Below, piece by piece: positions 3,860 through 64,000 of a stretch of DNA of 64,000 bases. The notes beneath the pieces are model-generated. The model saw nothing but the letters and a program-made list of their open reading frames with translations. It was not told the origin of the DNA and did no database searches. Position 1 is the stretch's first letter. Each line of letters opens with the position of its first letter. Made by a program: the position numbers and the translations under genes. The DNA comes from Squalus acanthias (lineage: Eukaryota). The stretch is taken from positions 15,502,001-15,566,000 of the forward strand of contig CM059432.1 in assembly GCA_030390025.1 (NCBI GenBank). Direction: 5' to 3'.

Positions 3860-4718
3860 GTCGGGTCTGTCAGTGTGTGCGCGTGTGTGTCAGTGAGTGT
3901 CTGTGTCAGTGTGTGTGTGTCTGTCTGTGTGTGTCAGTGTGTGTGTGTTTGTCTGTCTGTGTGTGTCAGTGAGTGTCTGTGTCAGTGTGTGTCAGTGTGT
4001 GTGTGTCAGTGAGTGTCTCTCAGTGTGTGTGTATCAGTGTGTGTCTGTCAGTGTCTGTGTCAGTGTGTGTCAGTGTGTATGTCAGTGTGTGTCTGTCAGT
4101 GTGTATGTGTCAGTGTGTGTGTCTGTGTCAGTGTGTGTTTCTGTGTGTGTGTGTCAGTGTGTGTTTCAGTGTGTGTGTCAGTGTGTGTGTCAGTATGTGT
4201 TTCAGTGTGTGTGTGTCAGTGTGTGTTTCAGTGTGTGTGTAAGTGTCAGTGGGTGTCTGTCACTGTGTATGCCAGTGTGTGTTTCAGTGTGTGTGTAAGT
4301 GTCAGTGGGTGTCTGTCAGTGTGTGTGTCAGTGTGTGTTTCAGTGTGTGTGTGCTTCAGTGTGTGTGTCGTGTGTGTTTCAGTGTGTGTGTGTCTGTCAG
4401 TGTGTGTGTCGTGTGTGTTTCAGTGTGTGTGTCTGTCAGTGTGTGTGTCAGTGTGTGTGTGTGTCAGTGTGTGTGTCGTGTGTGTTTCAGTGTGTGTGTG
4501 TCTGTCGGTGTGTGTCTGTCAGTGTGTGTGTCAGTGTGTGTTTCAGTGTGTGTGTCAGTGTGTGTGTCAGTGTGTGTGTGTGTCAGTCTGTGTGTATCAG
4601 TGTGTGTGTGTCAGTGTGTTTGTGTCAGTGTGTGTGTCAGTCAGTGTGTGTGTGTCAGTGTTTGTGTGTGTGTGTGTGTGTGTGTCAGTCAGTGTGTGTG
4701 TGTGTCAGTCTGTGTGTG
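3860..4718 (+). repeat. GT-rich satellite (GT)n-CA / GTGTGTCA-type, block 1
   Basis: Directly visible tandem of (GT)n interrupted by CA/CT. Confidence 0.95.
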
Positions 4719-4721
4719 TTT

Positions 4722-7700
4722 TTTTTAATTTGTTTATGGGATGTGGGCGTCGCTGGCAAGGCCAGCATTTATTGCCCATCCCTAATTGCCCTTGAGAAGG
4801 TGGTGGTGAGCCGCCTTCTTGAACCACTGCAGTCCATGTGGTGAAGGTACTCCACGGTGCTGTTAGCGAGTGAGTTCCAGGATTTTGACCCAGCGACGAT
4901 GAAGGATCGGCGATATACTTCCAAGTCAGGATGGTGTGTGACTTGGAGGGGAACTTGGAGGTGGTGGTGTTCCCATGCGCCTGCTGCCCTTGTCCTTCTA
5001 GGTGGAAGAAGTCGCGGATTTTGGAGGTGCTGCCGAAGAAGCCTTGGTGAGTTGCTGCAGTGCATCTTGTAGATGGTACACACTGCAGCCACGGTACGCT
5101 GGTGGTGGAGGGAGTGAATGTTTAAGGTGGTGAATGGGGTGCCGATCAAGCGGGCTGCTTTGTCCTAGATGGTGTTGAGCTTCTTGAGTGTTGTTGGAGC
5201 TGCACTCATCCAGGCAAGTGGACAGTATTCCATCACACTCCTTACTTGTGCCTTTTAGATGGTAGAAAGGCTTTGGGGAGTCAGGAGGTGAGACACTCCC
5301 CGTAGAATACCTAACCTCTGACCTGTTCTTGTTGCCACAGTATTTATGTGGCTGGTCCAGTTAAGTTTCTGGTCAATGGTGACCCCCCCAGGATGTTGAT
5401 AGTGGGGGATTTGGCGATGGTAATACCGTTGAATGTCAAGGGGCAGTGTTTAGACTCTCGCTTGTTGGAGATAGTCATTGCCTGGCACTTCTGTGGCGTG
5501 AATGTTACCTGCCACTTATCAGTCCAAGCCTGAATGTCGTCCAGATCTTGTTGCATGCGAGCATGGACAGCTTCATTATCTGAGGAGTTGTGAATGGCAC
5601 TGAACACTGTGCAGTCATCAGCGAACATCCCCATTTCCAACCTTATGTTGAAGGGAAGGTCATTGATGAAGCAGCTGAAGATGGTTGGGCCTAGGACACT
5701 GCCCTGAGGAACTCCTGCAGCGATGTCCTGGGGCTGTGATGATTGACCTTCAACCACCACAACCATCTTCCTTTGTGCTAGGTATGACTGCAGCCAGTGG
5801 AGAGTTTTCCCCCCGATTCCCATTGACTTCAGTTTTACTCGTGCTCCTTGATGCCACACTCGGTCAAATGCTGCCTTGATGTCAAAGGCAGTCACTCTCA
5901 CCTCACCTCTAGAATTCAGCTCCTTTGTCCATGTTTGGACCAAGGTTGTAATGAGGTCGGCAGCCGAGTGTTCTTGGCAGAACCCAGACTGGGCATCAGT
6001 GAGTAAGTGCCTGCTTGATAGCACTGTCGATGACACCTTCCATCACTTTATTGATGATTGAGAGTAGACTGATGGGCAGTAATTGGCTGGATTGGATTTG
6101 TCCTGCTTTTTGTGGACAGGACACACCTGGGCAGTTTTCCACATTGTCGGGTAGATGCCAGTGTTGTAGCTGTACTGGAACAGCTTGGCTAGAGGTGCGG
6201 CTAGTCCTGGAGCACAAGTCTTCAGCACTATAGCTGGGATGTTGTCGAGGCCCATAGCCTTTGCTGTATCCAGTGTGCTCAGCAGTTTCTTGACATCACG
6301 TGGAGTGAATCGAATTGGCTGAAGACTGGTTTCTGTGATGGTGGGGCCCACAGGAGGAGGCCGATATGGATCATCCACTCAACACTTCTGGCTGAAGATG
6401 GTTGCAAACACTTCAGCCTTGCCTTTTGCACTCATGTGCTGGGCTCCACCATCATTGAGGCTCCTCCTCCCGTTAGTTGTTTAATGGTCCACCACCATTC
6501 ACGACTGGATGTGGCAGGACTGCAGAGCTTTGATCTGATCCGTTGATTGTGGGATCGCTTAGCCCTCTCTATAGCATGCTGCTTCCGCTTTTTAGTCCTG
6601 TGTTGCAGCTTCCCCATTTGGCACCTCATTTTTAGGTACGCCTGCTGCTGCTCCTGGCATGCTCTTCTACACTCCTTATTGAACCAGGGTTGGTCCCCTG
6701 GCTTGATGGTAATGGTAGAATGAGGGACATGCCCAGCCATGAGGTTACAGATTGTGGTGGAATACAATTCTGCTGATGCCCCACAGATGCCCAGTTCTGA
6801 GCTGCTAGATCTGTTCTGAATCTATCCCATTTAGCACAGTGGTAGTGCCACATAACACGATGGAGGGTGTCCTCAGTGTGAAGACAGGACTTCATCTCCA
6901 CAATGTCTGTGCGGTGGTCACTGCTGCCAATACTGTCATGGACAGATACATCTGCGACAGGTAGATTGGTGAGGACGAGGTCAAGTAGGTTTTTCCCTCG
7001 TGTTGGTTCTCTCACCACTTGTCGCAGGCCCAGACTGGCAGCTATGTCCTTCAGGACTTGGCCAGCTCGGTCAGTAGTGGTGCTACTGAGACACTCTTGG
7101 TGATGGACATTGAAGTCCCCCACCCAGAGTACATTCTGTGCCCTTGCTACTCTCAGTGCTTCTTCCAAGTGGTGTTCAACATGGCAGAGTACTGATTCAT
7201 CAGCTGAGGGAGGGCGGTAGGTGGTAATCAGCAGGAGGTTTCCTTGCGCCCATGCTTGACCTGAAGCCATGAGACTTCATGGGGTCCAGAGTCAATGTTG
7301 AGGATTCCCAGAGCCACTCGTTCCCGACTGTATACCACTGTGCCGCCACCCCTGGTGGGTCTGTCCTGCCGGTGGGGCAGAGATGGTGATGGAGGAATTT
7401 GGGACATTGGCTGGAAGGTATGATTCTGTGAGTATGACTATGTCAGGCTGTTGCTTGACTAGTCTGTGGGACAGCTCTCCCAATTTTGGCACAAGTCCCC
7501 AGATGTTGGTGAGGAGGACTTTGCAGGGTCGACTGGGCTGGGTGTGCTGTTGCCGTGTCCGTAGCTGGTGCTGAGTGGTTCGGTTTCATATTTATTATTT
7601 TGTTTCGTAGCGGTTTGTTACAACTGAGTAGCTTGCTAGGCCATTTCAGAGGGGCAGTTAAGAATCAACCACATTTTTGTGGGTCAGGAGTCACATATAT

Positions 7701-7946
7701 CCCTGACCAGGTAAGGACAGCAAATTTCCTTCCCTAAAGGACATTAGTGAACCAGATGGGTTTTTACACCAATCCGATAGTTTCATGGTCACCATTACTG
7801 ATACTAGTAATTATTCCAGATTTATTTAATTAACTGAATTTAAATTCCCCAGCTGCCATGGTGGGATTTGAACTCACATCTCTGGATCAATAGTCCAGGC
7901 CTCTGGATTACTAGCCCAGTGACAATACCACTATACTAACATTCCC
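4722..7946 (-). mobile_element. Near full-length APE-RT non-LTR retrotransposon (family 'B', clade unassigned) with tRNA-like 5' head; frameshifted
   Basis: APE motifs NIWGL, DIVILTESYL, YRPP, GDFN, LDLVLTN, SDH; RT motifs [30 protein letters not shown]-rich 3' end at about 4722; A/B boxes at 7863-7938. Confidence 0.9.
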
Positions 7947-7947
7947 T

Positions 7948-8452
7948 TGTGTCAGTGTGTGTGTGTGTGTGTGTCAGTGTGTGTCTGTCAGTGTGTCTGC
8001 GTCAGTGTGTGTCTGTGTCAGTGTGTGTGTGTGTCAGTGTGTGTGTGTGTCAGTGTGTGTGTGTCAGTGTGTCTGTGTCAGTGTGTCTGTGTCAGTGTGC
8101 ATCTGTCAGAGTGTGTGTGTGTCAGTGTGTGTGTGTGTGTGCATCTGTCAGAGTGTGTGTGTGTCTGTGTCAGTGTGTGTCAGTGTGTGTGTCTGTGTCA
8201 GTGTGTGTCTGAGTGTGTGTGTGTCAGTGTGTGTCTGTCAGTGTGTGTGTCTGTGTCAGTGTGTGTGTGTCTGTCAGTGTGTGTGTGTCAGTGTGTGTTT
8301 CAGTGTGTGTGTATCAGTGTGTGTGTATCAGTGTGTGTGTATCAGTGTGTGTCTGTCAGTGTGTGTGTGTCAGTGTGTGTTTCAGTGTGTGTGTGTCAGT
8401 GTGTGTGTATCAGTGTGTGTGTGTGTCTGTCAGTGTGTCTGTGTCAGTGTGT
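7948..8452 (+). repeat. GT-rich satellite block 2
   Basis: Same unit and strand as block 1. Confidence 0.95.
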
Positions 8453-10196
8453 GAACATAAGAACATAAGAAATAGGAGCAGGTGTAGGCCATTCGGCCCT
8501 TCGAGCCTGCTCCGCCATTCAATGAGATCATGGCTGATCTTCTGCCTCAACTCCATTCACCGGCCCTATCGCCATATCCCTTGATGCCCTTACTAGTCAG
8601 AAATCTATCGACTTCTGTTTTGAATATACCCAATGACTGAGCCTCCACAGCCCCCTGGGGTAGAGAATTCCAAAGATTCACCACCCTCTGTGTGAAGAAA
8701 TTTCTTCTCATCTCAGTCCTGAATGGCCTACCCTTTATCCTGAGGCTGGGGCCCCTGGTTCTAGGCTCCCCAGCCAAGGGAAACATTCTCCCAGCATCCA
8801 TCCTATCAAGCCCTGTAATAATTTTGTATGCTTCAATGAGATCCCCTCTCATTCTTCTGAATTCAAGAGAATACAGTCCTAGTTTACTCAATCTCTTCTC
8901 ATACGACAGTTCCGCCATCCCAGGAATCAATCTCGTGAACCTTCGTTGCACTCCCTCTATGGCAAGTATATCCTTCCTTAGGTAAGGAGACCAAAATTGT
9001 ACACAGTACTCCAGGTGTGGTCTCACCAAGGCCCTATATAATTGGAGTAAGACTTCTTTACTCCTGCACTCAAATCCTCTTGTAATGAAAGCCAGCATAC
9101 CATTTGCCTTCCTAATGGCTTGCTGCACCTGCACATTCACTTTCAGTGACTCATGTACAAGGACACCCAGGTCCCTTTGAGCATCTGCATTCACCAATCT
9201 TTCACCATTTAGGAAATACTCTGTCTTTCTGTTTTTTTCTACCAAAGTGGATAACTTCACATTTATCCACATTATATTCCATCTGCCATGTTCTCGCCCA
9301 CTCACTGAGCCTGTCGAGATCCCCTTGAAGCCTCTTCACATCCTCTTCACAACTAACACTGCCACCTAGCTTTGTATCATCAGCAAATTTGGAAATGTTA
9401 CATTTAGTCCCCTCATCCAAATCATTGATATAGATTGTGAATAGCTGGGGCCCAAGCACCGATCCTTGCGGTACCCCACTAGTCACAGCCTGCCATTCCC
9501 TACTCTTTGTTTTCTGTCTGTTAACCAATTCTCAATCCATGCTAGTATATTACCCCCAATTCCATGTGCCCTAATTTTGTTCACCAACCTCTTGTGTGGG
9601 ACCTTATCGAAGGCCTTCTGAAAATCCAAATACACCACATCTACCAGTTCCCCTTTGTCTACTCCGCTAGTTACATCTTAAAGAACTCCAATAGGTTTGT
9701 TAAACAGGATTTCCCTTTCATAAATCCATGTTGACTCTGCCCAAACTTACTATTAGTTTCTAAGTGTCCAGTTATTACATCCTTTATAATAGATTCCAGC
9801 ATTTTTCCAACTACTGCTGTGAGGCTAACAGGTTTGTAGTTCCCCGTTTTCTCTCTCCCTCCTTTCTTAAATAGCGGGGTTACATTTGCTATCCTCCAAT
9901 CTGCAGGAACCGTTCCAGAATCTATAGAAGTTTGGAAGATGACAACCAATGTGTCCACTATCCCAATGGCCACCTCTTTCAAAACCCTAGGATGTAGGTC
10001 ATCCGGTCCTTGGGATTTATTGACTTTTAGTCCCACTAATTTTGCTAGTACTGTTTTTTTACTAATAATAATTTCTTTAAGTTCCTCATTCTCGCCACAC
10101 CCTTGGTTTTCTCGTATTTCTGGGAGGTTTGTGAAGACAGAAACAAAGTATTTATTTAATTTCTCTGCCATTTCCTCATTCCCCATTATAAATTCT
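8453..10196 (-). mobile_element. CR1 LINE, 5'-truncated
   Basis: RT motifs [29 protein letters not shown]; (TTCTTATG)n tail at 8453-8470. Confidence 0.93.
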
Positions 10197-11148
10197 TGTG
10201 TGTCAGTGTGTGTCTGTCAGTGTGTGTGTGTGTGTCAGTGTGTGTGTCAGTGTGTGTCTGTCAGTGTGTGTCTGTCAGTGTGTGTGTCAGTGTGTGTCTG
10301 TCAGTGTGTGTCTGTCAGTGTGTGTGTCAGTGTGTGTGTCTGTGTCAGTGTGTGTGTGTCAGTGTGTGTGTGTGTGTGTCAGTGTGTGTGTCAGTGTGTG
10401 TCTGTGTCAGTATGTGTGTGTGTCAGTGTGTGTGTGTCTGTGTCAGTGTGTGTGTCAGTGTGTGTGTGTCTGTGTCAGTGTGTGTGTGTCTGTGTTAGTG
10501 TGTGTGTGTCAGTGTGTGTGTCTGTGTCAGTGTGTGTGTCAGTGTGTGTGTGTCTGTGTTAGTGTGTGTGTCAGTGTGTGTGTGTGTCTGTGTTAGTGTG
10601 TGTGTGTCAGTGTGTGTGTCTGTGTCAGTGTGTGTGTCAGTGTGTGTGTGTCTGTGTTAGTGTGTGTGTCAGTGTGTGTGTGTGTCTGTGTGTGTGTGTG
10701 TGTGTATCAGTGTGTGTCAGTGTGTGTGTCAGTGTGTGTCTGTGTCAGTGTGTGTGTGTCAGTGTGTGTGTGTCTGTGTTAGTGTGTGTGTGTCAGTGTG
10801 TGTGTCTGTGTCAGTGTGTGTGTCAGTGTGTGTGTGTCTGTGTTAGTGTGTGTGTCAGTGTGTGTGTCAGTGTGTGTGTCTGTGTCAGTGTGTGTGTCAG
10901 TGTGTGTGTGTCTGTGTCAGTGTGTGTGTGTCAGTGTGTGTGTGTCTGTGTCAGTGTGTGTGTCAGTGTGCGTGTCTGTGTCAGTGTGTGTGTGTCTGTG
11001 TCAGTGTGTGTGTGTCAGTGTGTGTGTGTCTGTGTCAGTGTGTGTGTCAGTGTGTATGTGTCAGTGTGTGTGTGTCTGTGTCAGTGTGTGTGTCAGTGTG
11101 TGTGTCTGTGTCAGTGTGTGTGTGTCTGTGTTTATGTCTGTGTCTGTA
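10197..11148 (+). repeat. GT-rich satellite block 3
   Basis: Same unit and strand as blocks 1-2. Confidence 0.95.
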
Positions 11149-11749
11149 TGTTTTAGCAAATGAGTTCATTTTGTTCTTGCTTCCCTTTGACAAGTCCTCC
11201 GGCTGATGGAGTGTTTTCGAGCTAAAATGTTCCCATCGATTTTTCCCCCTCCTCTGTCTGAAAGCCACAAATAGAGTCACACAGAAAGGGTGGTGCGGCT
11301 TAAATCTGGCAATGCCACTGAGTTCCGAGTCCGGACTCCACCTGGCAGTGCAAGCCTGGGTTATATTACAATAAACCAGCAGTAATTATTAGACAAAGGG
11401 ATGAATGCAAAGATGCATTTATCGTTGCTATGAGCGGATTGTTGCGAACGTGCATTTAAACTACAAACATATTGCACTGTAGGGTGAGATGAAAGCAGAA
11501 TGGGAGCATAAACACCGGCACAGACAAGTTGGGCTGAATGGCCTCTTTCTATGCTGTAAATTCTATGTAATTCTCGGTATTCCTTACAACTGGTTAAAGG
11601 ATAAATATTGGCCAAATTGGATAAATTCGCGCCACGCGACCGAGGTGTTTAGTTGAAGTTTTGCAATGAAGGTACAAATGTGTGGGATTCAATTCCCTGA
11701 GAGCCACCTGTGGAAGACTCTTGTGTGGATTTTCTGCAATGGTCTGAAC

Positions 11750-12614: not shown

Positions 12615-13138
12615 TTTTTTTTTCCTTTTTTTTATTCGTTTATGGGATGTGGCTGTCACTGGCAAGGCCAGCATTTATTGCCCATCCCTAATTGCCCTTG
12701 AGAAGGTGGTGGTGAGCCGCCTTCTTGAACCGCTGCAGTCCGTGTGGTGAAGGTACTCCCACAGTGCTGTTAGGGAGGGAGTTCCAGGATTTTGACCCAG
12801 CGACGATGAAGGAGCGGCAATATATTTCTAAGTCAGGATGGTGTGTGACTTGGAGGGGAACTTGGAGGTGGTGGTGTTCCCATGCGCCTGCTGCCCTTGT
12901 CCTTCTAGGTGGAAGAGGTCATGGGTTTGGGAGGTGCTGTCGAAGAAGCCTTGGTGAGTTGCTGCAGTGCATCTTGTAGAGGGTACACACTGCAGCCACG
13001 GTACGCCGGTGGTGGAGGGAGGGAATGTTTAAAGTGGTGGATGGGGTGCCAATCAAGCGGGCTGCTTTGTCCTGGATGGTGTCGAGCTTCTTGAGTGTTG
13101 TTGGATCTGCACTCATCCAGACAAGTGGAGAGTATTCT
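12615..13138 (-). mobile_element. LINE family B 3' fragment
   Basis: Near identity to 4722-5230; poly(T) at about 12615-12635 on +. Confidence 0.88.
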
Positions 13139-13213
13139 AACAAGTAATGCATCCAAGTGGCCATTATTCGTGTGGGAGCCCTGGCAATGAGTGTTGGTGG
13201 GCATCACTGCCAA

Positions 13214-13995
13214 GCAGAGAGGTCAATAACCAGGGAGTATTGATTTAAAGTAATTGGTAGAAACATTAGAGGGGAGTTGGGGAGAACTTTTTTCACCCAA
13301 CAACAACAACAACTTGTATTTATATAGCGCCTTTAACGTAGTAAAACGTCACAAGGCGCTTCACAGGACTATTATAAGACAAAAAATTTGACACCGAGCC
13401 ACATAAGGAGAAATTAGGGCAGGTGACCAAAAGCTTGGTCAAAGAGGTAGGTTTTAAGGAGCGTCTTAAAGGAGGAAAGAAAGGTAGAGAGGCGGAGAGG
13501 TTTAGGCAGGGAATTCCAGAGCTTAGGGCCGAGGCAGATGAAGGCACGGCCACCAATGGTTGAACGATTATAATCAGAGATGCTCAAGAGGGCAGAATTA
13601 GAGGAGCGCAGATATCTCAGGGGGGTTGTGGGGCGGGAGGAGATTACAGAGATAGGGAGGGGCGAGGCCATGGAGGGATTTGAGAATTTTGAAATTGAGG
13701 CATTGCCAGTCCGGGAGCCAGTGTAGGTCAGCGAGCAGCAGGTCAGCAGGTCAGTAAGTCACCCAGAGGGTGGTGGGGGTCTGGAACTCACTGCCTGAAA
13801 GGGTGGTGGAGGCAGAAACCCTCATCGCATTTAAAAAGTACTTGGATATGCACTTGAAGTGCTGGAACCTACAAGGCTACGGACCAAGAGCTGGAAAGTG
13901 GGATAAGGCTGGATAGCTCTTTTTCGGCCGGGACAGACACGATGGGCTGAGTGGCCTCCTTCTGTGCCATAAATTTCTATAATTCTATGATTCTA
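13214..13995 (+). mobile_element. CR1 3' fragment interrupted by an L2 fragment
   Basis: Matches 797-1115 once 13300-13758 is removed. Confidence 0.85.
13300..13758 (-). mobile_element. L2 LINE 3' fragment
   Basis: GPKLWNSLP..FKTLLKTYLF; (TTG)n tail; TSD TCACCCA at 13293-13299 and 13759-13765. Confidence 0.88.
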
Positions 13996-23031: not shown

Positions 23032-24531
23032 GGAAAAAGTTGGAGATGGTACAGGTTTTTAAGCAAGTGTAGGGGCAGGGAAAGGGAGAAGGGGAGGAAA
23101 GAACAAAAGGGAAGGTCTGTGATAGGATGGAAGGCAGGAGAGATTAAGAGACAAAAGGGATGATGGTGCAAGGCAGAAGGAGATAGTAATGGGACAAGTT
23201 AAGAAACAAAAGATGACTCGAGATGAAGTGTAAATGGCAATGGCAGAATGAAAGACAGCTGCCATGTGAGAGAGAGAAAAAAAAATGATAGAGGCAGAGG
23301 TTATGGTCTGAAATTGTTGAGCTCGATGTTGAGTCCAGAAGGCTGTAAAGTGCCTAATCGAAAGATGAGGTGCTGTTCCTCGAGCTTACGTTGAGCTACA
23401 TTGGAACAGTGTAAGAGGCCGAGGACGGTGAGGTCAGAGTGGGAGTGGAGCGGAGAATTAAAGTGACAGGCGACCGGAAGCTTGACGTCACGCTTACAGA
23501 CTGAACGGAGGTGTTCCGCAAAGCGATCACCCGATCTGCGTTTGGTCTCCCCAATGTAGAGGAGACTGCATCGTGAGCAGCGAACACAGTAAAATAAATT
23601 GCAAGAAGTACAAGTAAATTGCTGTTTCACCTGGAAGGAGTGTTTGGGGCCCTGGACTGTGGGAAGGGAGGAGGTAAAAGGACAGGTGTTGCATCTCCTG
23701 CGCTTGCACGGGAAGGTGCCGGGCGAAGGGGAAGGGGTGTTGGGGGTGATAGAGGAGTGGACCAGGGTGTCGCGGAGGTAGCGGTCCCTTTGGAATGCTG
23801 AAAGGGGAGGTGAGGGGAAGATGTGTTTGGTGGTGGGATCACGCTGGAGGTGGCGAAAATGGCGGAGGATGATCCGTTGAATGTGGAGGCTGGTGGGGTA
23901 AAAGGTGAGGACAAGGGGAACCCTATCATGGTTCCGGGAGGGAGGGGAAGGGGCGAGAGCAGAAGTGCGGGAAATAGAACAGACACGGTCAAGGGGCGTG
24001 TCAACCACGGTAGAGGGGAATCCTCGGTTGAGGAAAAAGGAAGACATGTCGGAAGCACTAGTATGGAAGGTTGCATCGTTAGAGCAGATGCGGTGGAGAC
24101 GGAGAAACTGGGAGAATGGAATAGAGTCCTTACAGGAAGTGGGGTGGGAGGAAGTGTAGTCCAGGTAGCTGTGGGAGTCAGTGGGCTTGTAGTGAATGTT
24201 TGTCAACAGTCTATCCCCAGAGATGGAGACAGAGAAGTCGAGGAAGGGAAGGGAAGAATTGAAGATGGACTATGTGAAGGTGAGGGAAGGGTGGAAATTG
24301 GAAGCAAAGTGAATGAAATTTTCTAGTTCAGGGCGAGAGCAGGAAACGGCACTGATACAGTCAACAATGTACTGGAAAAAGAGGTGAGGGAGGGGACCTG
24401 AGTAGAACTGGAACAAAGAATGTTCCACATATCCCTCGAAAAGGCAGGCATAGCTAGGACCCATGCGGGTTCCCATAGCAACATCTTTAATCTGGAGGAA
24501 GTGAGTGCAGTCAAAGGAGAAGTTGTTCAAT

Positions 24532-26279: not shown

Positions 26280-27211
26280 GGTTGGGCCTCTGTTCAAGGA
26301 AGAAGCAGAGCGCCCTCAGGCCATCCTGGTGGGGGATGGAGGTGTAGAGGGATTGGACGTCCAGTGAAAAGGAGATGGTTGGGGCCAGGAAACTGGAAAC
26401 TGTTAACGTGGCGGAGGGCGACGGAAGAGTCGTGGATGTAGGTGGGAAGAGACTGGACAAGGGGAGAAAAAATAGAGTCGAGATAGGAAGAGATAAGTTC
26501 CGTGGGGCAAGAACAGGCTGAAACGATGGGTCTACCAGGGCAGTCCTGTTTGTGGATCTTGGGAAGGAGGTAGAAGCAGGCTGTGCGGGGTTGGGGAACT
26601 ATGAGGTTGGCGGCCATGGAGGGAAGATCTCCAGAGGAGATGAGGTCAATGACAGTCTTGGAAACGATGGCTTGATGTTTGGTAGTTGGGTCATGGTCCA
26701 GGGGGAGGTAGGAGGAGGTGTTGGAGAGTTGGCGTTCAGCCTCCGCTAGGTAGAGGTCGGTTCGCCAAACAACAACAGCGCCACCCTTGTCAGCAGGTTT
26801 AATGACAATGTTGGGGTTGGATCTGAGAGAATGGAGTGCTGCAAGTTCAGAGGGAGGTAGGTTGGAGTGAGTGAGGGGAACAGAGAAATTGAGATGGCCG
26901 ATGTCACGCCGGCAGTTTGCAATGAAAAGATCTAGAGAGGTTAAGAGGCCAGAGGGAGGGGTCCAGGTAGAACGAGAATTCTGAAAACAGGAGAAAGGGT
27001 CAGCCTGTGCGGGGGGAAGACTCCTGGCCAAAGAAGTGGACACGGAGACGAAGGCGACGGAAAAAGAGCTCAGCGTCGTGCCGAGCTCGAAATTCATTGA
27101 GGTGGGGGCGTAAGGGGATGAAGCTCAGGCCTTTGCTGAGGACTGATCGTTCGGGGTCAGAGAGGGGAAGGTCAGAGGGGATAGTGGGGTGAGATTGGAA
27201 GAAGGGATGGG

Positions 27212-36439: not shown

Positions 36440-37005
36440 CTCCTTTTTATTTATTTGTTTATTTGTTTATTTATTTGTATTCGTTTATGGGATCAGGGCA
36501 TTGCTGGCAAGGCCAGCATTTATTGCCCATCCCTAGTTGCCCTTAAGAAGATGGTGGTGAGCCGCCGCCTTGAACCGCTGCAGTCTGTGTGGTGAAGGTA
36601 CTCCCACAGTGCTGTTAGGGAGGGAGTTCCAGGATTTTGACCCAGCGACGATGAAAAGAACAACGATATATTTCTAAGTCAGGATGGTGTGTGACTTGGA
36701 GGGGAACTTGGAGGTGGTGGTGTTCCCATGCGCCTGCTGCCCTTGTCCTTCTAGGTGGAAGAGGTCGCGGGTTTGGGAGGTGCTGCCGAAGAGGCCTTGG
36801 CGAGTTGCTGCAGTGCATTTTGTAGATGGTACACACTGCAGCCACGGTACGCCGGTGGTGGAGGGAGTGAATGATTATGGTGGTGGATGGGGTGTCAATC
36901 AAGCGGTCTGCTTTGTCCTGGATGGTGTCAAGCTTCTTGAGTGTTGTTGGAGCCGCACTCATCCAGGCAAGTGGAGAGTATTCCATCACACTCCTTACTT
37001 GTGCC
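36440..37005 (-). mobile_element. LINE family B 3' fragment
   Basis: Near identity to 4722-5250; (TTTA)n tail. Confidence 0.88.
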
Positions 37006-38329
37006 TGCAGCCTTACTTGTGCCTTTGGTCAGGCAAGTTCATTCTACACTTGAAAATTTCACATTTTGTGTTTGCTATTGCTTCTAATATTAATCATTCT
37101 TTCCTTCAGGTTTTCCTGCTGTTTTACTGGAACAGCACCAGCTCGTCGGTACCTCTGTAAAAGCTTCTTCCAGAGTTTCTCATGATGGTCCCGCAGCTGC
37201 AGTCGCTGCATGTGTTCGCAGTATTTCACTGAACAGATTTTGAAGATGCGTGTGTCAAGGACCAATGGTTAAGTGTTTCAGTAATATACTACTTGCAAGG
37301 AAATAATTGTTGCACTGGAGGATGCCAACTGGGACTAATGGAAAAAAAATCTTTACTGTGAAATGGAATGATTGTTGTTAAATGTAAAATAAGAATAGAT
37401 AATAAAATATTTTGTCTAAATTATATTGAATCATATTTTGAAGAGAAATTAATTACTGCAGAACTGACACCACAAGGGATTCCAATCAGTGTAATCATCA
37501 ACATCTGTCTGCACTTTCCCATCACTCTTCATTTAATATCTTATTTACTTCTTGTGATCTTTTTAATGTGAGTGAGTGATAGCATGCTGTGATAGTAGTA
37601 TTGTCACATTGCCTTCATTGATTTTTTCCCCCTTCTGCATTCTGCTCTCTTTTGCTGGGTTATGAGGGCGAATTTTCCGATCCCCTGCACTCGTGAGGTG
37701 GGGGCCGAGCAGTTGTGACTGCAATACTCGCTGCAAGGGAAGCAGGCCAATCACACAGGATTTTCTGCAATCCGCCTCATCAAGGATTTACAAGGAGCTC
37801 CTCGTGCTGATTTCGCCTGAGGCAGGGAACTCAGAATGGCAGTGGTGAAGAGCTGCTGGTTGGTGGGGAGCCAGTGATGCTTCTCTGCTCAGCACCTCCC
37901 CCCCCCCCGCCTGGTTATTGAACCCGTTGATAGCTGCTTGCTTTGTTTGTCGCTCTGGTCTGCCTCCCAGCTGCCCCCACCCCGACAAGCCCTGTCTTTG
38001 GCCAACGTGCTAGCAGGCACAATCTGCCTGCCAAACCCCCAAAAAGCAGTGTGGCTTCTATCCATCAGCTGGGCCAGCATTTGTCCCCCCTCACGTCAGC
38101 TTTGGGCCGATTGTGAGAACCTGTGCTGCTGCATCAACCAGTATGTTCATCCTTGCATGTCATCTAAGTGCATCTCTTTTGCACCCTCTTCATGGCCTTG
38201 GCACAACTTCCTAAAGCAGAGTGCTCAAAACAGGACCTAATATTCTAACTATGATCAAACCAACTCCTCCATCATTATCCCTAGGCCTGTTTTGCCCCGC
38301 TAGCAGGATAGACCTTTCTCAAAGGTGAA

Positions 38330-39480
38330 GGCCCAGTGGTGTAGAGTTGGGTAGCCTCATGGCTTCAGGTCAAATAAAGTCATGGCAACATCCCGATGAC
38401 CATATAACTCAACTGACAGTTCAGAACTCTGCCATGTTGAACAGTATTTGGAGGAAGAACTGAGGGAAGCAATGGCACAAAGTGTACTCTAGGTGGAGGA
38501 CTTCAATGCCTACCACCAAGAGCGGTTAGGGGGGGTAAAACCACCACTGACTAAGTTGGCTGAGTCCTGAAAGACGTAGCTGGCAGACTGGACTTGCATC
38601 AGGTGGTAGGAGCTAAAATGAGGGAATAACTGCTTGACCTCATCCTCACTAGCTTACCTGTTGAAGTCATGTCTGTTCACGATGGCATTGGTAGAAGCGA
38701 CCACAACACAGTCCTTGTGAAGACAATGTCTCATCTTCACACTAAGGACACTTTTCATAATGAAGTGTGGCACTACCACGGTGCTAAGCAGGACAAACTA
38801 AGGACAGATCAGCTGCCCAAAACTGGGCATCCATGGGGTGCTATGGGCCATTTGCAGAAACAGAATTATATATCACCACAGTCTGTAACTTCACAGTGCA
38901 GCACATCCTTCACTATATCCATTAAGTCAGGAGATTAATTCTGGTTCAATAGGGAGTGCCAGGAGCAATACCCGGCATATCTTAGAATGATCCAACAATG
39001 AACTGAAGCTACAATGAAGGGCTATCTGTATGCTAAACACCAAAAGCAGCAGGTTAAAGACAGAGCTAAGCGGTCCTACAACCAATGGATCAGAGCAGAA
39101 ATCTGTAGTCCTACCACGTCCAATCGGGAATGGTGTTGGAAAATCAGGAAACTAATAGGAGGAAGAGGCTCAAATGAACGTCCCCATCCTCAAACACAGT
39201 GAACTCCAGCATGTGAGTGCAAAAAACAAGGCTGAAGTATTTGCAAGCATCTTCAGCCAGAAGTGCCAAGTGAACGATCCTATTTTGCCTCTTCGCAAGG
39301 TACCAACCATTATAGATGCCAATGTCTGGCCAATTTGGTTTACCATGTGACATTAAGAATACACTAGGCACAGCAAAGGCTATGGGCCCTGACAACATCC
39401 TAGCTGTTGTGCTGATAGCCTGTGTACAAGAACTAGCTGGCCCTTTAGCCAAACTATTCCAGAGCAACTATGACATTAGT
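38330..39480 (+). mobile_element. Degenerate LINE family B (APE to linker)
   Basis: GRSDHNTV, KAMGPDNI..ELAGPLAKLFQ, homologous to 6150-7270. Confidence 0.75.
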
Positions 39481-45728: not shown

Positions 45729-48582
45729 CACATTGATCTTGACAGTTCTGCTGTCAGTATTCTACAGCATTGAGGTGCTGCAAACACAGACAAGCACTGC
45801 ACAAAGGTGCACGGCTGCACCCAGGCTCTCCCATGACTCCCTCCATATGCTTATGGATGGAGTCACAGCACGCAGGGAGGTTCTCTTCCCTTCCCATAGG
45901 CGAAAGAGACCTCCCCAGGAGATCAACGCAGCCTGGTTGCACATTGCACAGGAGGACACAAGCAGAGATGTCGTCAGGAGGACGTGGCTGCAGTGGTGCA
46001 AAGATTTCAATGATCTGAGCAGCTCACGAAAAGTTACTGCCAAGCCACACTCAACCTCATCCTGCTGTGCCACTCATCACATCCACATCACTCTGCCTTC
46101 CCTACCCTACTCCTGCACATCTTTACTCACACCAACTTACCTTGCACCTCCACCCATCCCTCTCTATCTACATTATCACTTCCCCATCTCACTAGCCACC
46201 CCTCACACTCACTCTCAACCTACTGCAAGCAAACGAACTAACAACACAAAAGGGTAGGCACCTGGGTGCTTTAGTCAATGTTCATGTGAAGTTTCTGTTA
46301 ACGTGTTGTCAAACAGTGAAATCTATATTTTCAACACTTTATCTTATTGGACAGATCTGTGCTCACCTTTGGAAATGTCTTCGTGAGTTCCCGTGAATGT
46401 TGAGACATAACCTCCCCCCCACCCCCAATGGTGATGAGTGTGAAAGGAATGGCTTGGACATTGTAGGGATGCTTTATGGTGCTGGTGTGGGGCGGTGTCA
46501 ATCTGGCGCATCATGTGGCAACCAGGGTGTACAGCGTCAAGTGAAATAAATCTGGCCATGGTGATGCCATCCCTGGCCTCACGGGCAGCAATGTTGTCGG
46601 GTGCTGACGTCCTGTGTCCTGTGCAGCATCAGTTGATTGCAGAGAAGGTTGGTGTTGTTGTTGGTGCTGCTGGTGTGCCTGGTGCTGCTGGTGTTGGGGC
46701 TGATTGTGGAGGGATTCAGAGGACCAAGGTGAGAATTTTTCAAGGGCACTGATGTTGCTGGAATAGATTGCAGCTGAAGTTGAGATGACAGAAGCGATCT
46801 GTCAATGGTGAGAGAGCTCGCTCCAAGGAGGTGACAGTGGATAGAGAGTTTACTCCAAACACTTCCAAACTGCATACAGCTCAAAAGTGTCTTCCAAGTC
46901 CTGAAGGCTCAAGCTTCTGACATTGGAAAGTGACCATCTGTGAAATGGTAGCTTTCATACCACTTTTGCAGCTGTCACCTATTCACAGCAATGGGGAGAC
47001 ACAGAGAACCCGACCTCCTTACCTGACGTGATCTCCGAACGATGGGAACCCTGTTAAAAAAGTGGGAAAATAGAAATAGGCTGGCAAAATAGTAGTTAAC
47101 AAACGTTTAACAAGCATTTAACTGTCTTAAATGCCTCCCCCGCTGCTTGGTGTCGGGTCTGTTCTGAAATCGCAGACCCGACACTTTGGAAACTTACATG
47201 GAGGCGGGTGCGGAGCGGGTTCCCAACCCGCTGTCAATCATTTCAATTTTGACAGTGGCCCCGCCTCCGAACACCGCACCCTGAGCGCCGGCAAAATCGC
47301 GGCCTACATTTCTCCAATGAAAAACAAGGTCAACTCTGCAAATCTCCCTTCATAATTTCTAACCCTAAGTCTAGGAATGATCCTTGTTCTCTTCTTTAAA
47401 CCCTCTCCTACACATCGACCTCTTGTAATAAAGGTTGGCACAAATTACGGAAGCCATTGGTCCATATAACTCACTGTTCCATAGAAACCTATGGCCCTCT
47501 AACTCGCATCTGATGCTTCCTCTCTTTCAGCTAGTTCCTTATCCACCTCAAAGTTTTGCCGAGGATACCCACTGCTTGGTTCTTCTGTAGCAGCCTTTCA
47601 TGTGGAATTTATCGAAAACTCTCTGGAAATCAATGTGCACAATATCATTGAGGGTTTTCACCACCCACTTGGGATGTCGCCTGTTCAAAAAAGACCAAGG
47701 AGGTTGATTGGGCAGCATCTTCCTCATCTAAAGCAATGTTTGCTACCATTTATTCGGTGATTTTCATGCAGGTAATTTCTAAACTTGTTTCTAATGGCCT
47801 TTTTTGAAAAATTTGTTCTAGGGATATGGACAACACTGGAAAAATAGCATTTAAGAACATAAGAAATGGAGCAGGAGTAGGCCTATGGCCCCTCGAGCCT
47901 GCTCCGCCATTTCAATAAGATCATGGCTGATCTATTGAATATCCCTCATTTCCTTTAGAGTATTGAGAGTCAACCTCATCTTGTGGGACGAGAGTTACAT
48001 GTAGGCCAAACCAGGTAGGGGTGGCAGGTTCCTGAAGGACATTAGTGGGGTTTTTAACCACAATCTAGCAGATTTCACGATCATTCTCTGGTGCCAGCCC
48101 ATGGATTACCAGATATTATTGAATTCAATTTCAAAACTTGCTATGTTAGGAGTTGAAGCCACGCCCTCTTGCTCGTCCAATACCATAACCACTAGGCTAC
48201 CATGCCATATATTTTGCCAGTTATTCATGTAAGACTAAAGGGTCTTTAGTTACCTAGATTTTTTCTGAAGGTAGGTGCCCTAAACTGAACGTGATATTCC
48301 AAATGTGGCCTCACCGCTGATCTATACAACTGCCCAGAAAGTCACAGGTTTTATCCCAAGTTTGTGCTGAGTTTGGTAGCCTCAGTTGGGGTGGCAGTGG
48401 AAACACTCAAATTGTCTTCAGGGGAGCTGGGGAGTTATCCCTCAATCAACATAACAAAAACAGATTATCTGGTCATTATCTCATTGCTGTTACAACAGTG
48501 CCTACACTTCAAAAAGTACTTCATTGGCTGTAAAGCGCTTTGGGACGTCTGGTGGTCGTGAAAGGCGCTATATAAATGCAAG

Positions 48583-52520: not shown

Positions 52521-53420
52521 TTATTTATTGTCCCTTTTGGGTTTCAAATAATCAAAGAGAGGTTCGAGCCCCTCTTCTACAAGGTCTGCCAGTGGTTTAG
52601 CAAGGGGGTTACGCTTGACGTGAAGCCCCGTATCTAGCGCATGGCAGGCGACCCTTTCCAACTCAGTCAGCATGGGGAGGTTCGTGGGAAGGTTTTCAAT
52701 GTCATTATAGTTCACATTGAGCAGTTTAAGGGGTCTCATCAAACAGATTGATTTGGGCAGGAACCGAAGCCTGTTTTTCTCTGCAATAAATATCCTCATG
52801 TTTTCCAGTTGCCCAACACTTTCAGAAATACTTTCAATTTTGTTGTGGCCTATGTGTAAGAAAGTTAATCTTCTCATCCTGTAGACACACGTGGGCAATT
52901 GCACCAATCGATTGTTGCTTAAATTGAGTTTTTCCAGTTTCCTCAGGTCCTCCAAGTTCTCGGGGAGAGATGAAATCACATTGTGTGAGAGGCTCAGGAC
53001 CTGTAGCTTTTTGCAGTGGCTCAGTTCTGACGGCACTTCTTTGAGACAATTCCAATCAGCGAATAGAACCTTCAGTTTCCTCAACGTTCCAATTTCTTTT
53101 GGCAAAGCAGCCAATTGATTTCCCAACAAATTTAGTACGACCAAATTATGAAGGTTCTCGACGCCAGGACTGATACTAAGAAGGAAATTATGTGACACAT
53201 TGAGTTTTTCTACTTCAGTTACCTGCCAAATAATTTCAGGGATTTCTGTCATTTCCATCATTGCTAACCCCAGAGAGCTGAAGCCGTAAACGGTCTTCAA
53301 TTGGCTCCTTATCTCAGCAACCAAAAGTACTTCCTCATCTTCTGAAGGAATTGGTCCTTTCTTTTTTATTGATTTTCTTAGCTCTTCTTTCGAAACAGTC
53401 TTCGACGCACAAATTCCCAT
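52521..53420 (-). CDS. LRRC30: Leucine-rich repeat-containing protein 30-like, single coding exon, 299 aa
   Basis: Uninterrupted ORF with about 8 LxxLxLxxNxLxxLP repeats. The C-terminus GLHVKRNPLAKPLADLVEEGLEPLFDYLK and the segment EVEKLNVSHN..VVLNLLGN..LKVLF..NCLKEVPSELS.CKKLQVLSLSHN match LRRC30 as I recall it. N-terminal MGICAS. Splice acceptor (ttttacttttacag) at 53475 just upstream of the ATG; candidate AATAAA at 52292-52297 (-). Confidence 0.88.
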   Translation of the reverse strand: MGICASKTVSKEELRKSIKKKGPIPSEDEEVLLVAEIRSQLKTVYGFSSLGLAMMEMTEIPEIIWQVTEVEKLNVSHNFLLSISPGVENLHNLVVLNLLGNQLAALPKEIGTLRKLKVLFADWNCLKEVPSELSHCKKLQVLSLSHNVISSLPENLEDLRKLEKLNLSNNRLVQLPTCVYRMRRLTFLHIGHNKIESISESVGQLENMRIFIAEKNRLRFLPKSICLMRPLKLLNVNYNDIENLPTNLPMLTELERVACHALDTGLHVKRNPLAKPLADLVEEGLEPLFDYLKPKRDNK

Positions 53421-54571
53421 CCTTAATTGCTAAGGCTCCTATATAATTTTTTCCAAGGTTTACGTATTGGTGACCTGTAAAAGTAAAATTGACAGTGTTC
53501 AAGATAATACACCATTGCATTAAGCAAGCAAGGTCAATAAGACGAATTAAGTGGTCAACATATATACCATTTATACTATACAGGTTGCATTGCACTATAG
53601 TTTTAGTTTGGCTTTGAGCCAAACTGCGCAATGCAATTCGAGTACAAGCACTTGGCACAGGGAACAGTAGGAAAGGCAGGAGGTGGAGAAAGATGCTACA
53701 GTTTTGAGGGAATGTTTCTGACGTATGACTGCTACTGTAGCGGAATCTGCTAGCCGCATGTGTTGGACTACACTGCAAGGAATACAGGGCTTTCAGATTG
53801 CCTTGGAGTGAGTGAGAGTCTGTGGTGCAGTCCCCAGCAATTGCTGCCATGACGCCAGTCTCAATATCTCTCATGAATGCCCAGACTGCTGACATTCAGG
53901 CATTGGGCTGACCTCCACTATGGACTGCCTAATGGAAGAGCTGGGACAAATGGGGAGAGACAAGATCACGGATTTCAGGAGTGTGACCAATGCTATTGTC
54001 TCAGTTATCACACCGATCAGATCACACTGAAGGCATGATCAGAGCTGAAATAGGATCTGTGTTGGTGGATGCCACATGCTTTCCAACCTGCAGCACCAAC
54101 AACCAACTGTGTTTCTACAACCCCCACCACCAACCACCCCCCCACCCCACCACCGCCCCCCATCCCATCAACTGCTGCTGAGCCTGAGAGCACGCAGAGC
54201 TGGGCCACTGCCCTCCCAACCCCACCGCCACCACCCACCCCCGAGAGGCAGTCACAGCCTGAGCCATCTTGATTCCAGAAGCTCAATCAGGGACTCAACT
54301 ACCAACCCCCACAGCCCTAGTCCTGTTATAGTGGTCACACCAGGTAGAGGCAGAAGGATAGAAAGTAGAACACAACAGACGCCTACTTATAGGAGGGGTA
54401 GGCATGGTGGGGAAAGGGTTTAGAGGTAGGCAAATAGATAGGTTTGCATGTAAATAAAGCGTATTAGAGCACTGCAAGTGGTGGTTCTTTGTGTACTTGC
54501 TCAGAGTTCTGTTTCGTTTTGTTATGATAATTGGTGGGAGTTTCTCAGTGTTTTTAGGTGGTATTGATCAA

Positions 54572-55506
54572 CATGTCATCGATGACGACGAACACCTTGC
54601 TAAGGCCATCCCCACGCCTCCACTACACGCCTTCAAGCAGCCGCCTAACCTCAAAAGTACCATCGTTCGCAGCAAATTACCCAGCTGTCAGGAGAACAGC
54701 GACCACGACACCACACAACCCTGCCACGGCAACCTCTGCAAGACATGCCAGATCATGAACACAGATACCGTCATCACACGTGAGGACACTACCCACCAGG
54801 TACATGGTACATACTCATGTGACTCGGCCAACGTTGTCTACCTGATACGTTGCAGTAAAGGATGCCCCAGAGCATGGTACATCGGCGAGACCATGCAGAC
54901 ACTGAGACAACGTATGAACAGACACCGCGCAACAATCGCCAAGCAGGATGGTTGCCTCCCAGTCGGGGAACACTTCAGCAGTCAAGGGCATTCAGCCTCG
55001 GATCTGCGGGTTAGCGTTCTCCAAGGCGGCCTTCGTGATACACGACAACGCAAAATCATCGAGCAGAAACTGATAGCCAAGTTCCGCACTCATGAGGACG
55101 GCCTCAATCAGGATATCGGGTTCATGTCACGCTATAGAACGTGACTTGACATCGTTGCCGGTCTTTCCAGTTTTAAAAAAAAAACAAACACAAGAAACAA
55201 ACACAAAAAATGGAGAGGATATGCAGCCAGCAGGTGTTCTGACGCGTTGGACCCCCTGGGACACATCTCATTGTCTTGGCTGTGCTCTTAGTGTGTCTTT
55301 GATGTAGGGAAAGATTTAATCTATGCATTTTCTCTGTGTTTTTATATTCTGTGAATTCTGATAGATTCTCTCACAGTAACTTTGCCTGACGAAGGGGCGA
55401 CAGCTCCGAAAGCTTGTAATTTTAAATAAATCTGTTGGACTATAACCTGGTGTTGTGCGACTTCTCATTTTTGTCCACCCCAGTCCAACGCCGGCATCTC
55501 CGCATC
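54572..55506 (+). mobile_element. Penelope-like element 3' part (GIY-YIG + pLTR + tail)
   Basis: FKQPPNL, PCHGNLCKTC, NVVYLIRC..WYIGET..LRQRMN.H, GLN; 8-bp TSD TTGATCAA (54564-54571, 55507-55514). Confidence 0.9.
55382..55419 (+). ncRNA. Minimal type I hammerhead ribozyme motif (Penelope family A)
   Basis: TTGC-CTGACGA-A-GGGGC GACA GCTCC-GAAA-GCTT-GTAA. Confidence 0.7.
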
Positions 55507-58989: not shown

Positions 58990-59317
58990 ATTTTTTATTA
59001 TTCATTCATGGGATGTGGGCATCGCTGGCAAGGCCAGCATTTATTGCCCATCCCTAATTGCCCTTGAGAAGGTGGTGGTGAGCTGCCTTCTTGACAATTG
59101 AGTGGCGTGCTAGGCCATTTCAGAGGGCAGTTAAGAGTCAACCACATTGCCGTGGGTCTTGAGTCACATATAGGCCAGACCAGGTAAGGATGGCAGGTTT
59201 CATTCCCTGAAGGACATTAGTGAACCAGATGGGTTACATGGCCACCATTACTGGTACTAGCTTTTTTTTTATTCCAGATTTATTTAATTAACTGAATTAA
59301 AATTCCCCAGCTGCCGT
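58990..59317 (-). mobile_element. SINE-like derivative of LINE family B (5' UTR fused to 3' tail)
   Basis: 58990-59094 matches 4722-4822; 59094-59317 matches 7620-7858. Confidence 0.82.
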
Positions 59318-62969: not shown

Positions 62970-64000
62970 ATAGTGAATAGGGAAGGTGTATGGATGTTAA
63001 AAAGGAAGAAAGTTTATAAACCTTAGGACAAGGCCAGCATTTATTGCCCATCCCTAATTGCCCTTGAGAAGGTGGTGGTGAGCCGCCTTCTTGAACCACT
63101 GCAGTCCGTGTGGTGAAGGTACCCCCACAATGCTGTTAGGGAGGGAGTTCCAGGATTTTGACCCAGCAACGATAAAGGAATGGCGATATATTTCCAAGTT
63201 AGGATGGTGTGTATCTTGGAGGAGAACTTGGAGGTGGTGGTGTTCTCATGCGCCTGCTGCCCTTGTCCTTCTAGATGGTAGAAGTTGCGGGTTTGGGAGG
63301 TGTTGCCGAAGAAGCCTTGGCGAGTTGCTGCAGTGCATCTTGTAGATGGTACACACTGCAGCCATGGAACGCCGGTGGTGGAGGGAGTGGATGTTTAAGG
63401 TGGTGGATGGGGTGCCAATCAAGTGGGCTGCTTTGTCCTGGATGGTGTCGAGCTTCTTGGGTGATAAGTGGCGTTCCGCAGAGATTTGTACTGGGTCCTC
63501 AGCTCTTCACCATATACATCAATGACTTGGATGAAGGATAGAGAGTTGTATATCCAAGTTTGCAGATGACACCAAGTTAGGAGGCAGAGTAAGTTGTGTA
63601 GTTGAGCAGGAAATTTCAAAGGAACATAGGCAGATTAAGTGAGTGGGCAAAACTGTGGCAGATGAAGTGCAATGTGGGGAAGTTTGAAGTCATGCATTTT
63701 GGATCCAAGAATAACATCAGAATATTTTCTAAATGGTGAGTGACTGGGGACTGTGGAGGAGCAAAGAGATTTGGGTATCCAGATAAACAAATCAATAAAA
63801 GCTAGTGCACAGGTATAAAAAAATTATCAAAAAGGCTAATGGAATGTTGACCCATATCTCAAGGGGGCTGGATTACAAAAAGGGGAGGAAGTTATACTTC
63901 AGTTGTACAGAGCCTTGGTCAGATACCATTCGGACTACTGCGTTCAGCTTTGGATGTCGCACCTCAGGCAGGATATATTAGACCTTGGCAGGGGTACAAC

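Follow-up and report, generated by a model that had tools for sequence, protein, structure and literature searches.

A tRNA-type SINE head forms the 5′ end of Zenon LINEs in sharks and a ray and may serve as a Pol III promoter

The field holds that LINEs use RNA polymerase II (Pol II) and SINEs use Pol III, which limits their length (Kojima 2024, PMC10886601, in the portion of the text available). Known head captures, as far as they are treated in the accessible part of Kojima 2018, run from LINE parts into non-coding SINEs. A locus in the spiny dogfish, Squalus acanthias, raises the question of whether the reverse can occur: does a protein-coding LINE carry the tRNA-type head of a SINE as its own 5′ end, and is it transcribed from that head? 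The locus lies in a stretch of 64,000 nt, which we call the window. On its minus strand, from 7946 to about 4719, sits a decayed APE-RT LINE of about 3.2 kb (3,218 nt on the sense strand). Its parts, and two SINE-like relatives elsewhere in the window, are as follows.

7852..7946, minus strand: tRNA-derived head with A box, arm 1 (loop CTAGTAA), duplicated arm 2 and B box (ARAGORN, Rfam, match to SquAca_Zenon-1)
7620..7851, minus strand: SINE-type body, common to the SINE copy at 59315-59094 (sequence alignment)
7523..7619, minus strand: LINE-specific linker with an A-rich tract at 7612-7590 and an ATG at 7589 outside the APE frame (alignment and contig coverage)
4782..7522, minus strand: single APE-RT reading frame (ORF2), broken (Pfam PF14529, PF00078)
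4719..4781, minus strand: short 3′ UTR and A-rich end, followed by AC-rich microsatellite (92-94% identity with the SINE tail and with three further 3′ fragments, all in the window)
58991..59315, minus strand: 5′-truncated SINE-like copy, in which the body runs directly into the final ~100 nt of the LINE at junction 7620/4822 (alignment; contigs)
47930..48207, minus strand: older SINE relative with a single-arm head, a body shared with Zenon and a LINE-like tail (alignment with shuffles)

No host DNA separates the head from the APE domain in this copy. AC-rich microsatellite directly precedes the 5′ end at 7946 and the same microsatellite follows the 3′ end, so that any target-site duplication is unreadable. 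This long microsatellite, at 3900-11150, also contains a 5′-truncated CR1 copy (8460-10150). The Zenon copy itself is dead, its frame broken into ten in-frame segments with three stops in 906 codons.

The initial annotation had described an A box at 7938-7928 and a B box at 7875-7863, and both are found there on the minus strand, the A box reading TAGTATAGTGG. Its two anticodon-like arms, the second a duplicate of the first, are likewise present (7919-7903 and 7898-7882), and the 21-nt units 7919-7899 and 7898-7878 have the same letter at 16 of 21 positions. ARAGORN makes a single tRNA call in the whole window, which is this head (7924-7852), typed as Asn(ATT) from the second arm. The Rfam tRNA model gives the head 20.4 bits, below its gathering score of 29, and the head folds no better than shuffled sequence (z 0.73). 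The element has, as SINE2 families do, a tRNA-derived head with A and B boxes. We consider tRNA-Thr(AGT) a plausible source for it, and take Ser(AGA) and Gln to be the alternatives. By eye, the anticodon position reads AGT in six of the seven elasmobranch Zenon consensuses, over the part of each that was compared, and ATT in that of the whale shark; a similar arm in bivalve Helenus is filed under Thr-AGT in the available part of the Kojima 2024 supplement (PMC10886601). Arm 2 remains paired although its stem letters differ between the compared Squalus consensuses and those of white shark and catshark, and over the first 134 nt the window copy equals SquAca_Zenon-1 at 126 positions, with five of the eight differences at CpG sites (both by eye). 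Our pattern scan for A/B boxes is no census, as it missed this copy's own A box, which carries two CpG changes. Two further A/B-box heads with 33-nt spacing, at ~1673 and ~14195 on the plus strand, probably belong to a different tRNA-derived SINE family.

The APE domain had been placed about 350 nt after the head, in good agreement with the 341 nt that we measured from the B box to the APE motif KVLLTN, which begins at 7522. Pfam recognizes Exo_endo_phos_2 (PF14529, E 3e-12) and RVT_1 (PF00078, E 3e-29) in the frame. Between the head and 7585 the list of open reading frames holds no minus-strand frame of at least 80 aa, which leaves no room for an ORF1. The A-rich stretch, first put at about 7590-7605, is present but lies at about 7612-7590, and by eye a tract stands at the same place in the compared part of all seven elasmobranch consensuses. 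Ten ATGs occur between 7946 and the APE motif, and the frame of that motif contains no Met from 7585 to 7292. In six of the seven consensuses, again over the compared part and by eye, an ATG follows the tract; in the stingray consensus, where both lie inside the first 400 nt, this ATG is out of frame with the APE. Internal, non-AUG or frameshift initiation would therefore be needed whichever polymerase makes the RNA. At the other end, an AATAAA about 40 nt before the A-tail suits Pol II, and A-rich ends, the poly-A trait, are found in the full copy and in two of the three 3′ fragments, the third being cut short. Contig loose ends at 4737-4739 are A-tracts in all four sequencing runs. Another AATAAA, at ~7826-7821 on the minus strand and about 120 nt into the element, is odd for a Pol II transcript; it recurs in six of the seven elasmobranch consensuses (by eye, over the compared part).

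By its sequence the window LINE is a member of the elasmobranch Zenon family. Zenon elements are described as having no ORF1 and as having a poly-A tail that is unique to them among CR1-group elements, and near-full-length copies of the elasmobranch family number in the hundreds to thousands in each genome, a few of the listed ones being intact (Stuart et al. 2026, PMC13343379, including Suppl. Table 3, in the parts available). The single frame with APE and RT and without ORF1 in the window element matches this trait, and the absence of ORF1, correct as the initial annotation had it, is already published for Zenon with or without a head and is no novelty. We compared the first 400 nt of each published consensus (Suppl. 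Table 2 of the same paper) by eye. All seven elasmobranch Zenon consensuses (SquAca_Zenon-1/2/3, CarCar, RhiTyp, ScyCan and HypSab) start with head, body and linker. They represent white shark, whale shark, catshark, spiny dogfish (three) and stingray, five species in all, measure 2.9-3.3 kb, and start no more than a few bases from the 5′ end of the tRNA. A and B boxes are recognizable in them, the B box being degenerate in the stingray consensus, whereas over the same 400 nt none of the three consensuses from hagfish (two) and coelacanth (one) has the head. As the same structure occurs in five species including a ray, head and APE-RT form one unit. The SINE-LINE hybrid structure proposed for this locus therefore holds at the level of the family: the head-APE joint is not local, since the compared elasmobranch consensuses and the gene models of other sharks share it, and no elasmobranch consensus begins with a different 5′ UTR or an ORF1. 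We conclude from these comparisons that the head is almost certainly integral to elasmobranch Zenon.

Database searches gave a similar picture of the junction and a sparser one of the wider family. Of the 13 database proteins that we tested, 5 have body sequence upstream of the APE; they come from whale shark, from horn shark and from a single Logan cluster with two members. The shark gene models may be spliced and count only as support for the junction. Among the 17 matches of the protein search, ten look like copies of elasmobranch Zenon, P0016-P0019 are distant endonucleases, and P0010, P0013 and P0020 look like repeat-protein noise. Three horn shark gene models (P0001, P0002 and P0022) have LINE pieces annotated as exons of host genes, namely an Ig-domain locus, a zinc-finger gene and a FERM gene, likely through annotation read-through. 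The stretch 7300-7950 is present in 20 of the 24 public runs listed, 14 of which hold half its words or more. Contigs from four runs cover all 30 bins, and position 7590 is covered by 106, 72, 87 and 21 contigs, depths that are unsuited to ranking head against body and, as X15 is only tentatively an RNA run, to gauging expression. None of the 32 contig pieces listed, of over 640,000, bridges 7620 by 31 letters on each side, so the contigs alone are no proof of linkage. A 20-nt APE motif had no matches in metagenome, viral and prokaryote contigs, and the viral collection gave one irrelevant RT locus, and none when searched with the alignment. In an RT tree of 26 rows with no labeled Zenon reference, no supported set holds the window RT; the nearest rows are L036, P0028, P0026 and P0032, and the closest RT relatives found are 38-43% identical to it. 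ARAGORN called a tRNA in none of 21 related loci, many of which are cut on the 5′ side. L036 (1-3099), an intact Zenon-like APE-RT element with a poly-A end that makes up the whole contig of a "Clostridia" metagenome bin, is most likely mis-binned animal host DNA; it differs from the window element in having an in-frame ATG and T-runs, and its contig offers only 33 nt before the frame.

The head and body also occur in short elements. Aligned over 217 bases, 7857-7620 and the SINE copy at 59315-59094 are identical at 193, and the 59-kb SINE form ceases to follow the LINE at 7620, a point that lies upstream of the A-rich tract. The joint 4821/7620 was found in contigs of all four runs, and body/tail joints in contigs vary (4821/7620, 4817/7619, 4793/7622, 4809/7634). 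In the 48-kb relative, the head alignment has a 20-nt gap at arm 2 (its score was reached by 6 of 2,000 shuffles), and the score of its tail alignment to the Zenon tail was reached by none of 2,000. Run X15, too, shows single-arm heads, by eye, at a loose end of 11 contigs at 7875. The single-arm heads on the 48-kb relative and in run X15 suggest that a SINE donated the head and that the arm was duplicated later. The variety of body/tail joints shows that the LINE may itself also give rise to derivatives by deletion, so that the SINE-to-LINE direction of capture is tentative.

The window contains other repeats as well. An old 5′-truncated Zenon copy at 38270-39470 on the plus strand, 69% identical over 38408-39470 and without a head upstream, may represent an older subfamily or may simply be decayed. 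Three 3′ Zenon fragments on the minus strand (12626-13222, 36470-37006 and 63029-63463) are 92-94% identical to the full copy. Penelope-like sequence is found at 54458-55144 on the plus strand (GIY-YIG match, E 2e-4), and we take 23301-24269 and 26294-27124 on the minus strand to be Penelope-like fragments too. A 302-aa open frame with leucine-rich repeats (Pfam LRR_14, LRR_8) at 52521-53429 on the minus strand is probably a host exon or retrocopy.

If Pol III reads the whole element, its sense strand should bear a mark, since a Pol III unit must be free of T-runs on that strand. There is no TTTT in the 3,218 nt of the window copy, compared with 4.8 expected from base composition (6 of 1,000 shuffles), 2.0 expected under a dinucleotide-preserving null (P 0.146), and P values of 0.076 and 0.056 under two codon nulls. 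With TT content or codon usage kept constant, the lack of TTTT by itself loses significance. Shorter runs gave a stronger signal: synonymous permutation of the coding segments predicts 12.5 TTT runs, and they hold 4 (none of 5,000 shuffles had so few). Runs of A, C and G stand at 0.90-0.99 of expectation, and Phe is encoded by TTC in 17 of 20 codons. At 0.32, the TTT ratio is lower than in any of the 33 related LINE ORFs, which span 0.59-1.38 with a median of 1.00 and of which 32 contain TTTT; these controls are 33 ORFs from 35 loci, with L033 and L035 (ORF <300 aa) and L001 left out, and L036 is the only close Zenon-like relative among them. These tests cover one copy. TTT is not itself a terminator, and it is on TTT that the strongest depletion falls, not on terminator-length runs.

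ORFs in the same window carry 1.6 (CR1), 4.3 (L2) and 4.0 (Penelope-like) TTTT per kb. The CR1 is also TTTT-poor for its codons (11 against 22.5 expected, P 0.001), and L032 (1-3921), a distant LINE ORF, has no TTTT against 6.0 expected, has few C runs too, and lies in a contig where ARAGORN finds no tRNA. T-run avoidance therefore has other causes too. The old Zenon copy at 38270-39470, 1.2 kb long, contains three TTTT runs. Among the published consensuses, compared over their first 400 nt, TTTT is absent from all seven headed ones and present in all three headless ones (by eye), and none of the five majority changes towards T creates a TTTT, among 40 listed of 970 differences. The lack of TTTT in the window copy agrees with a trait of type 2 Pol III units, the absence of a T4+ terminator on the transcribed strand. 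Taken together, the T-run signal favors Pol III as the putative polymerase of the LINE.

These observations suggest the following history. An ancestral ORF1-less Zenon would have taken the 5′ ~330 nt of a partner SINE, tRNA head and body, as its own 5′ end, presumably by template switching or recombination before the split of sharks and rays; both route and direction are proposed here from the comparisons above. The internal A and B boxes would recruit TFIIIC and Pol III, although the head as a working promoter is our inference, and Pol III could read the whole 3.3 kb owing to a sense strand purged of T-runs. The resulting RNA would be uncapped and would contain many upstream AUGs, so that translation of the APE-RT would have to start internally, at a non-AUG codon or through a frameshift, close to the A-rich linker, the weakest step of the scheme. 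To our knowledge there is no demonstrated route for translating an uncapped 3-kb Pol III RNA, and this counts against Pol III. The APE-RT would then use target-primed reverse transcription, beginning at the 3′ tail, to copy its own RNA, and would also mobilize short head, body and tail derivatives that are SINEs by structure. Target-primed reverse transcription and the mobilization of SINEs by a LINE protein are established biology, and in the window a tail is common to the LINE and its SINE derivatives. That Pol III makes the full-length Zenon RNA seems to us slightly better than an even bet. The complete account, in which elasmobranch Zenon is an autonomous coding retrotransposon with a captured SINE head from which Pol III transcribes its 3.3-kb RNA, on a strand kept terminator-free since before the shark/ray split, this RNA being translated without a cap, is tentative and falls a little short of even.

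The simplest competing idea is a one-off SINE insertion beside a 5′-truncated LINE at this locus. It could draw on the A-rich tract at 7612-7590, which had been flagged as a possible tail of an independent SINE, and on the unbridged position 7620 in the listed contig pieces. The tract is no SINE tail, as the SINE form leaves the LINE at 7620, before the tract, and the tract itself stands in all seven consensuses; the SINE's own tail is missing at the junction, and the same junction recurs in gene models of other sharks and in the compared part of all seven elasmobranch consensuses, by which we regard this idea as refuted, its chance being next to nil. A different question of origin is whether Zenon captured a tRNA directly, the SINEs being internal-deletion derivatives, which would be compatible with Pol III use. 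The varying body/tail joints fit such a course, as does the precedent that Zenon spawns internally deleted elements, for example Persaeus from a lepidopteran Zenon (Wang et al. 2019, in the accessible part). The older single-arm SINE relative at 48207-47930, with its Zenon body and Zenon-like tail, and the single-arm heads of run X15 instead place the simpler head on the SINE side, and we judge direct capture to be somewhat unlikely.

Other readings accept the head and assign it another task. A promoter located in the body or linker might have Pol II produce the coding RNA, and the boxes, bound by TFIIIC, would serve as enhancer or boundary; Pol III would be confined to the short SINE derivatives, exchange with which would keep the boxes intact. 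Such exchange, or repeated derivation, does occur, as SINE and LINE have lineage-specific body variants in common in the sequences compared. The AATAAA near the 3′ end, the milder T-run loss of the headless CR1 and the standing view of LINEs as Pol II transcripts and of SINE length as limited by Pol III processivity (Kojima 2024, PMC10886601, in the portion available) speak for Pol II as well. It does not predict a T-specific loss of runs over a 2.7-kb coding region that exceeds all 33 related ORFs, nor consensuses whose start, in the part compared, lies only a few bases from the 5′ end of the tRNA, the place where Pol III starts. We hold transcription by Pol II to be rather unlikely. Alternatively, the tRNA-like fold could be a processing signal, the element being co-transcribed from host genes and cut by RNase P at the head; R2 and some RTE elements use a self-cleaving ribozyme in an analogous way. 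A head that folds no better than shuffles and scores under the Rfam threshold speaks against this, and RNase P cleavage gives no reason for T-run avoidance; we consider it improbable. Transcription by Pol III from the SINE-type head is the reading that we carry forward.

How does this element compare with those already described? The elasmobranch Zenon of Stuart et al. 2026 (PMC13343379) agrees with the window copy in 5′ sequence, length of about 3.3 kb, single APE-RT frame, lack of ORF1 and poly-A end; the available parts of the paper differ in giving no account of head, promoter or partner SINE. Its main text contains "tRNA" and "promoter" zero times and "SINE" once, the preprint likewise has neither "tRNA" nor "promoter", and "tRNA" is absent from the available text of the supplement. 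According to its authors, the elasmobranch Zenons were not submitted to a repeat repository. In the open literature, which was the scope of our search, with Repbase, Dfam and subscription journals outside it, we found no description of a tRNA-headed Zenon or of a Pol III-transcribed LINE. The sequences are deposited as Zenon consensuses, and the head goes unremarked in that text. The lack of ORF1 and the sequences are already public, and the head seems to be undescribed; what is new is the Zenon identity of the tRNA-headed LINE and the five-species range of its head.

Zenons of hagfish, coelacanth, crustaceans and Lepidoptera share the lack of ORF1 and the poly-A tail in the sources available, whereas the hagfish and coelacanth consensuses have no tRNA head in their first 400 nt. 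Persaeus keeps part of the Zenon 5′ UTR and, in the accessible part of Wang et al. 2019, is described without tRNA homology or a Pol III promoter. SINE2 families with LINE tails in cartilaginous fish (HE1, SacSINE1 and the CmiSINEs) share the A/B-box tRNA head, a body and a LINE-shared tail. The 59-kb and 48-kb copies in the window have this build and are short and non-coding, but the window element itself, at 3.2 kb with an APE-RT, is neither; SINEs code for nothing, unlike Zenon. Described shark SINEs pair with HER1/CR1 or L2 and have V, Deu or CORE bodies, in the sources as far as available. UCON3, Deu and Meta, the bodies that our comparison covered, showed no resemblance by eye to the Zenon body in the available sequences of the Kojima 2020 supplement. 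RTE-1_DAn and the elements related to it are also LINEs holding tRNA-like sequence, but they belong to the RTE clade, and the available part of Kojima 2018 does not say where in the element that sequence lies or what it does. Bipartite SINEs (Bov-tA, AfroSINE) and TRIMp3 elements (Cassandra, Helenus, Ajax) likewise join Pol III heads to retrotransposon parts; in the accounts available these are short and non-autonomous, whereas the Zenon head sits on a full coding element. The available portions of Luchetti 2017 (PMC5499810), Nishihara 2016, Ohshima 2013, Kojima 2020, Wang 2019, Martelossi 2024, Venkatesh 2007 and a whale shark preprint treat other shark SINEs or Zenon partners, none of them the SINE found here.

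Across sharks and rays, then, a tRNA-type head sits on a full coding element. If Pol III does make its RNA, Zenon would provide a naturally long Pol III transcript that needs translation, in effect a natural Pol III messenger RNA, and with it a direct way to test how RNA that lacks a cap gets to the ribosome; the Zenon LINE would be the longer form of its own SINE. Even if Pol III is not used, the family would represent promoter capture in the reverse direction, together with a SINE family unmatched to the shark SINEs described in the sources available.
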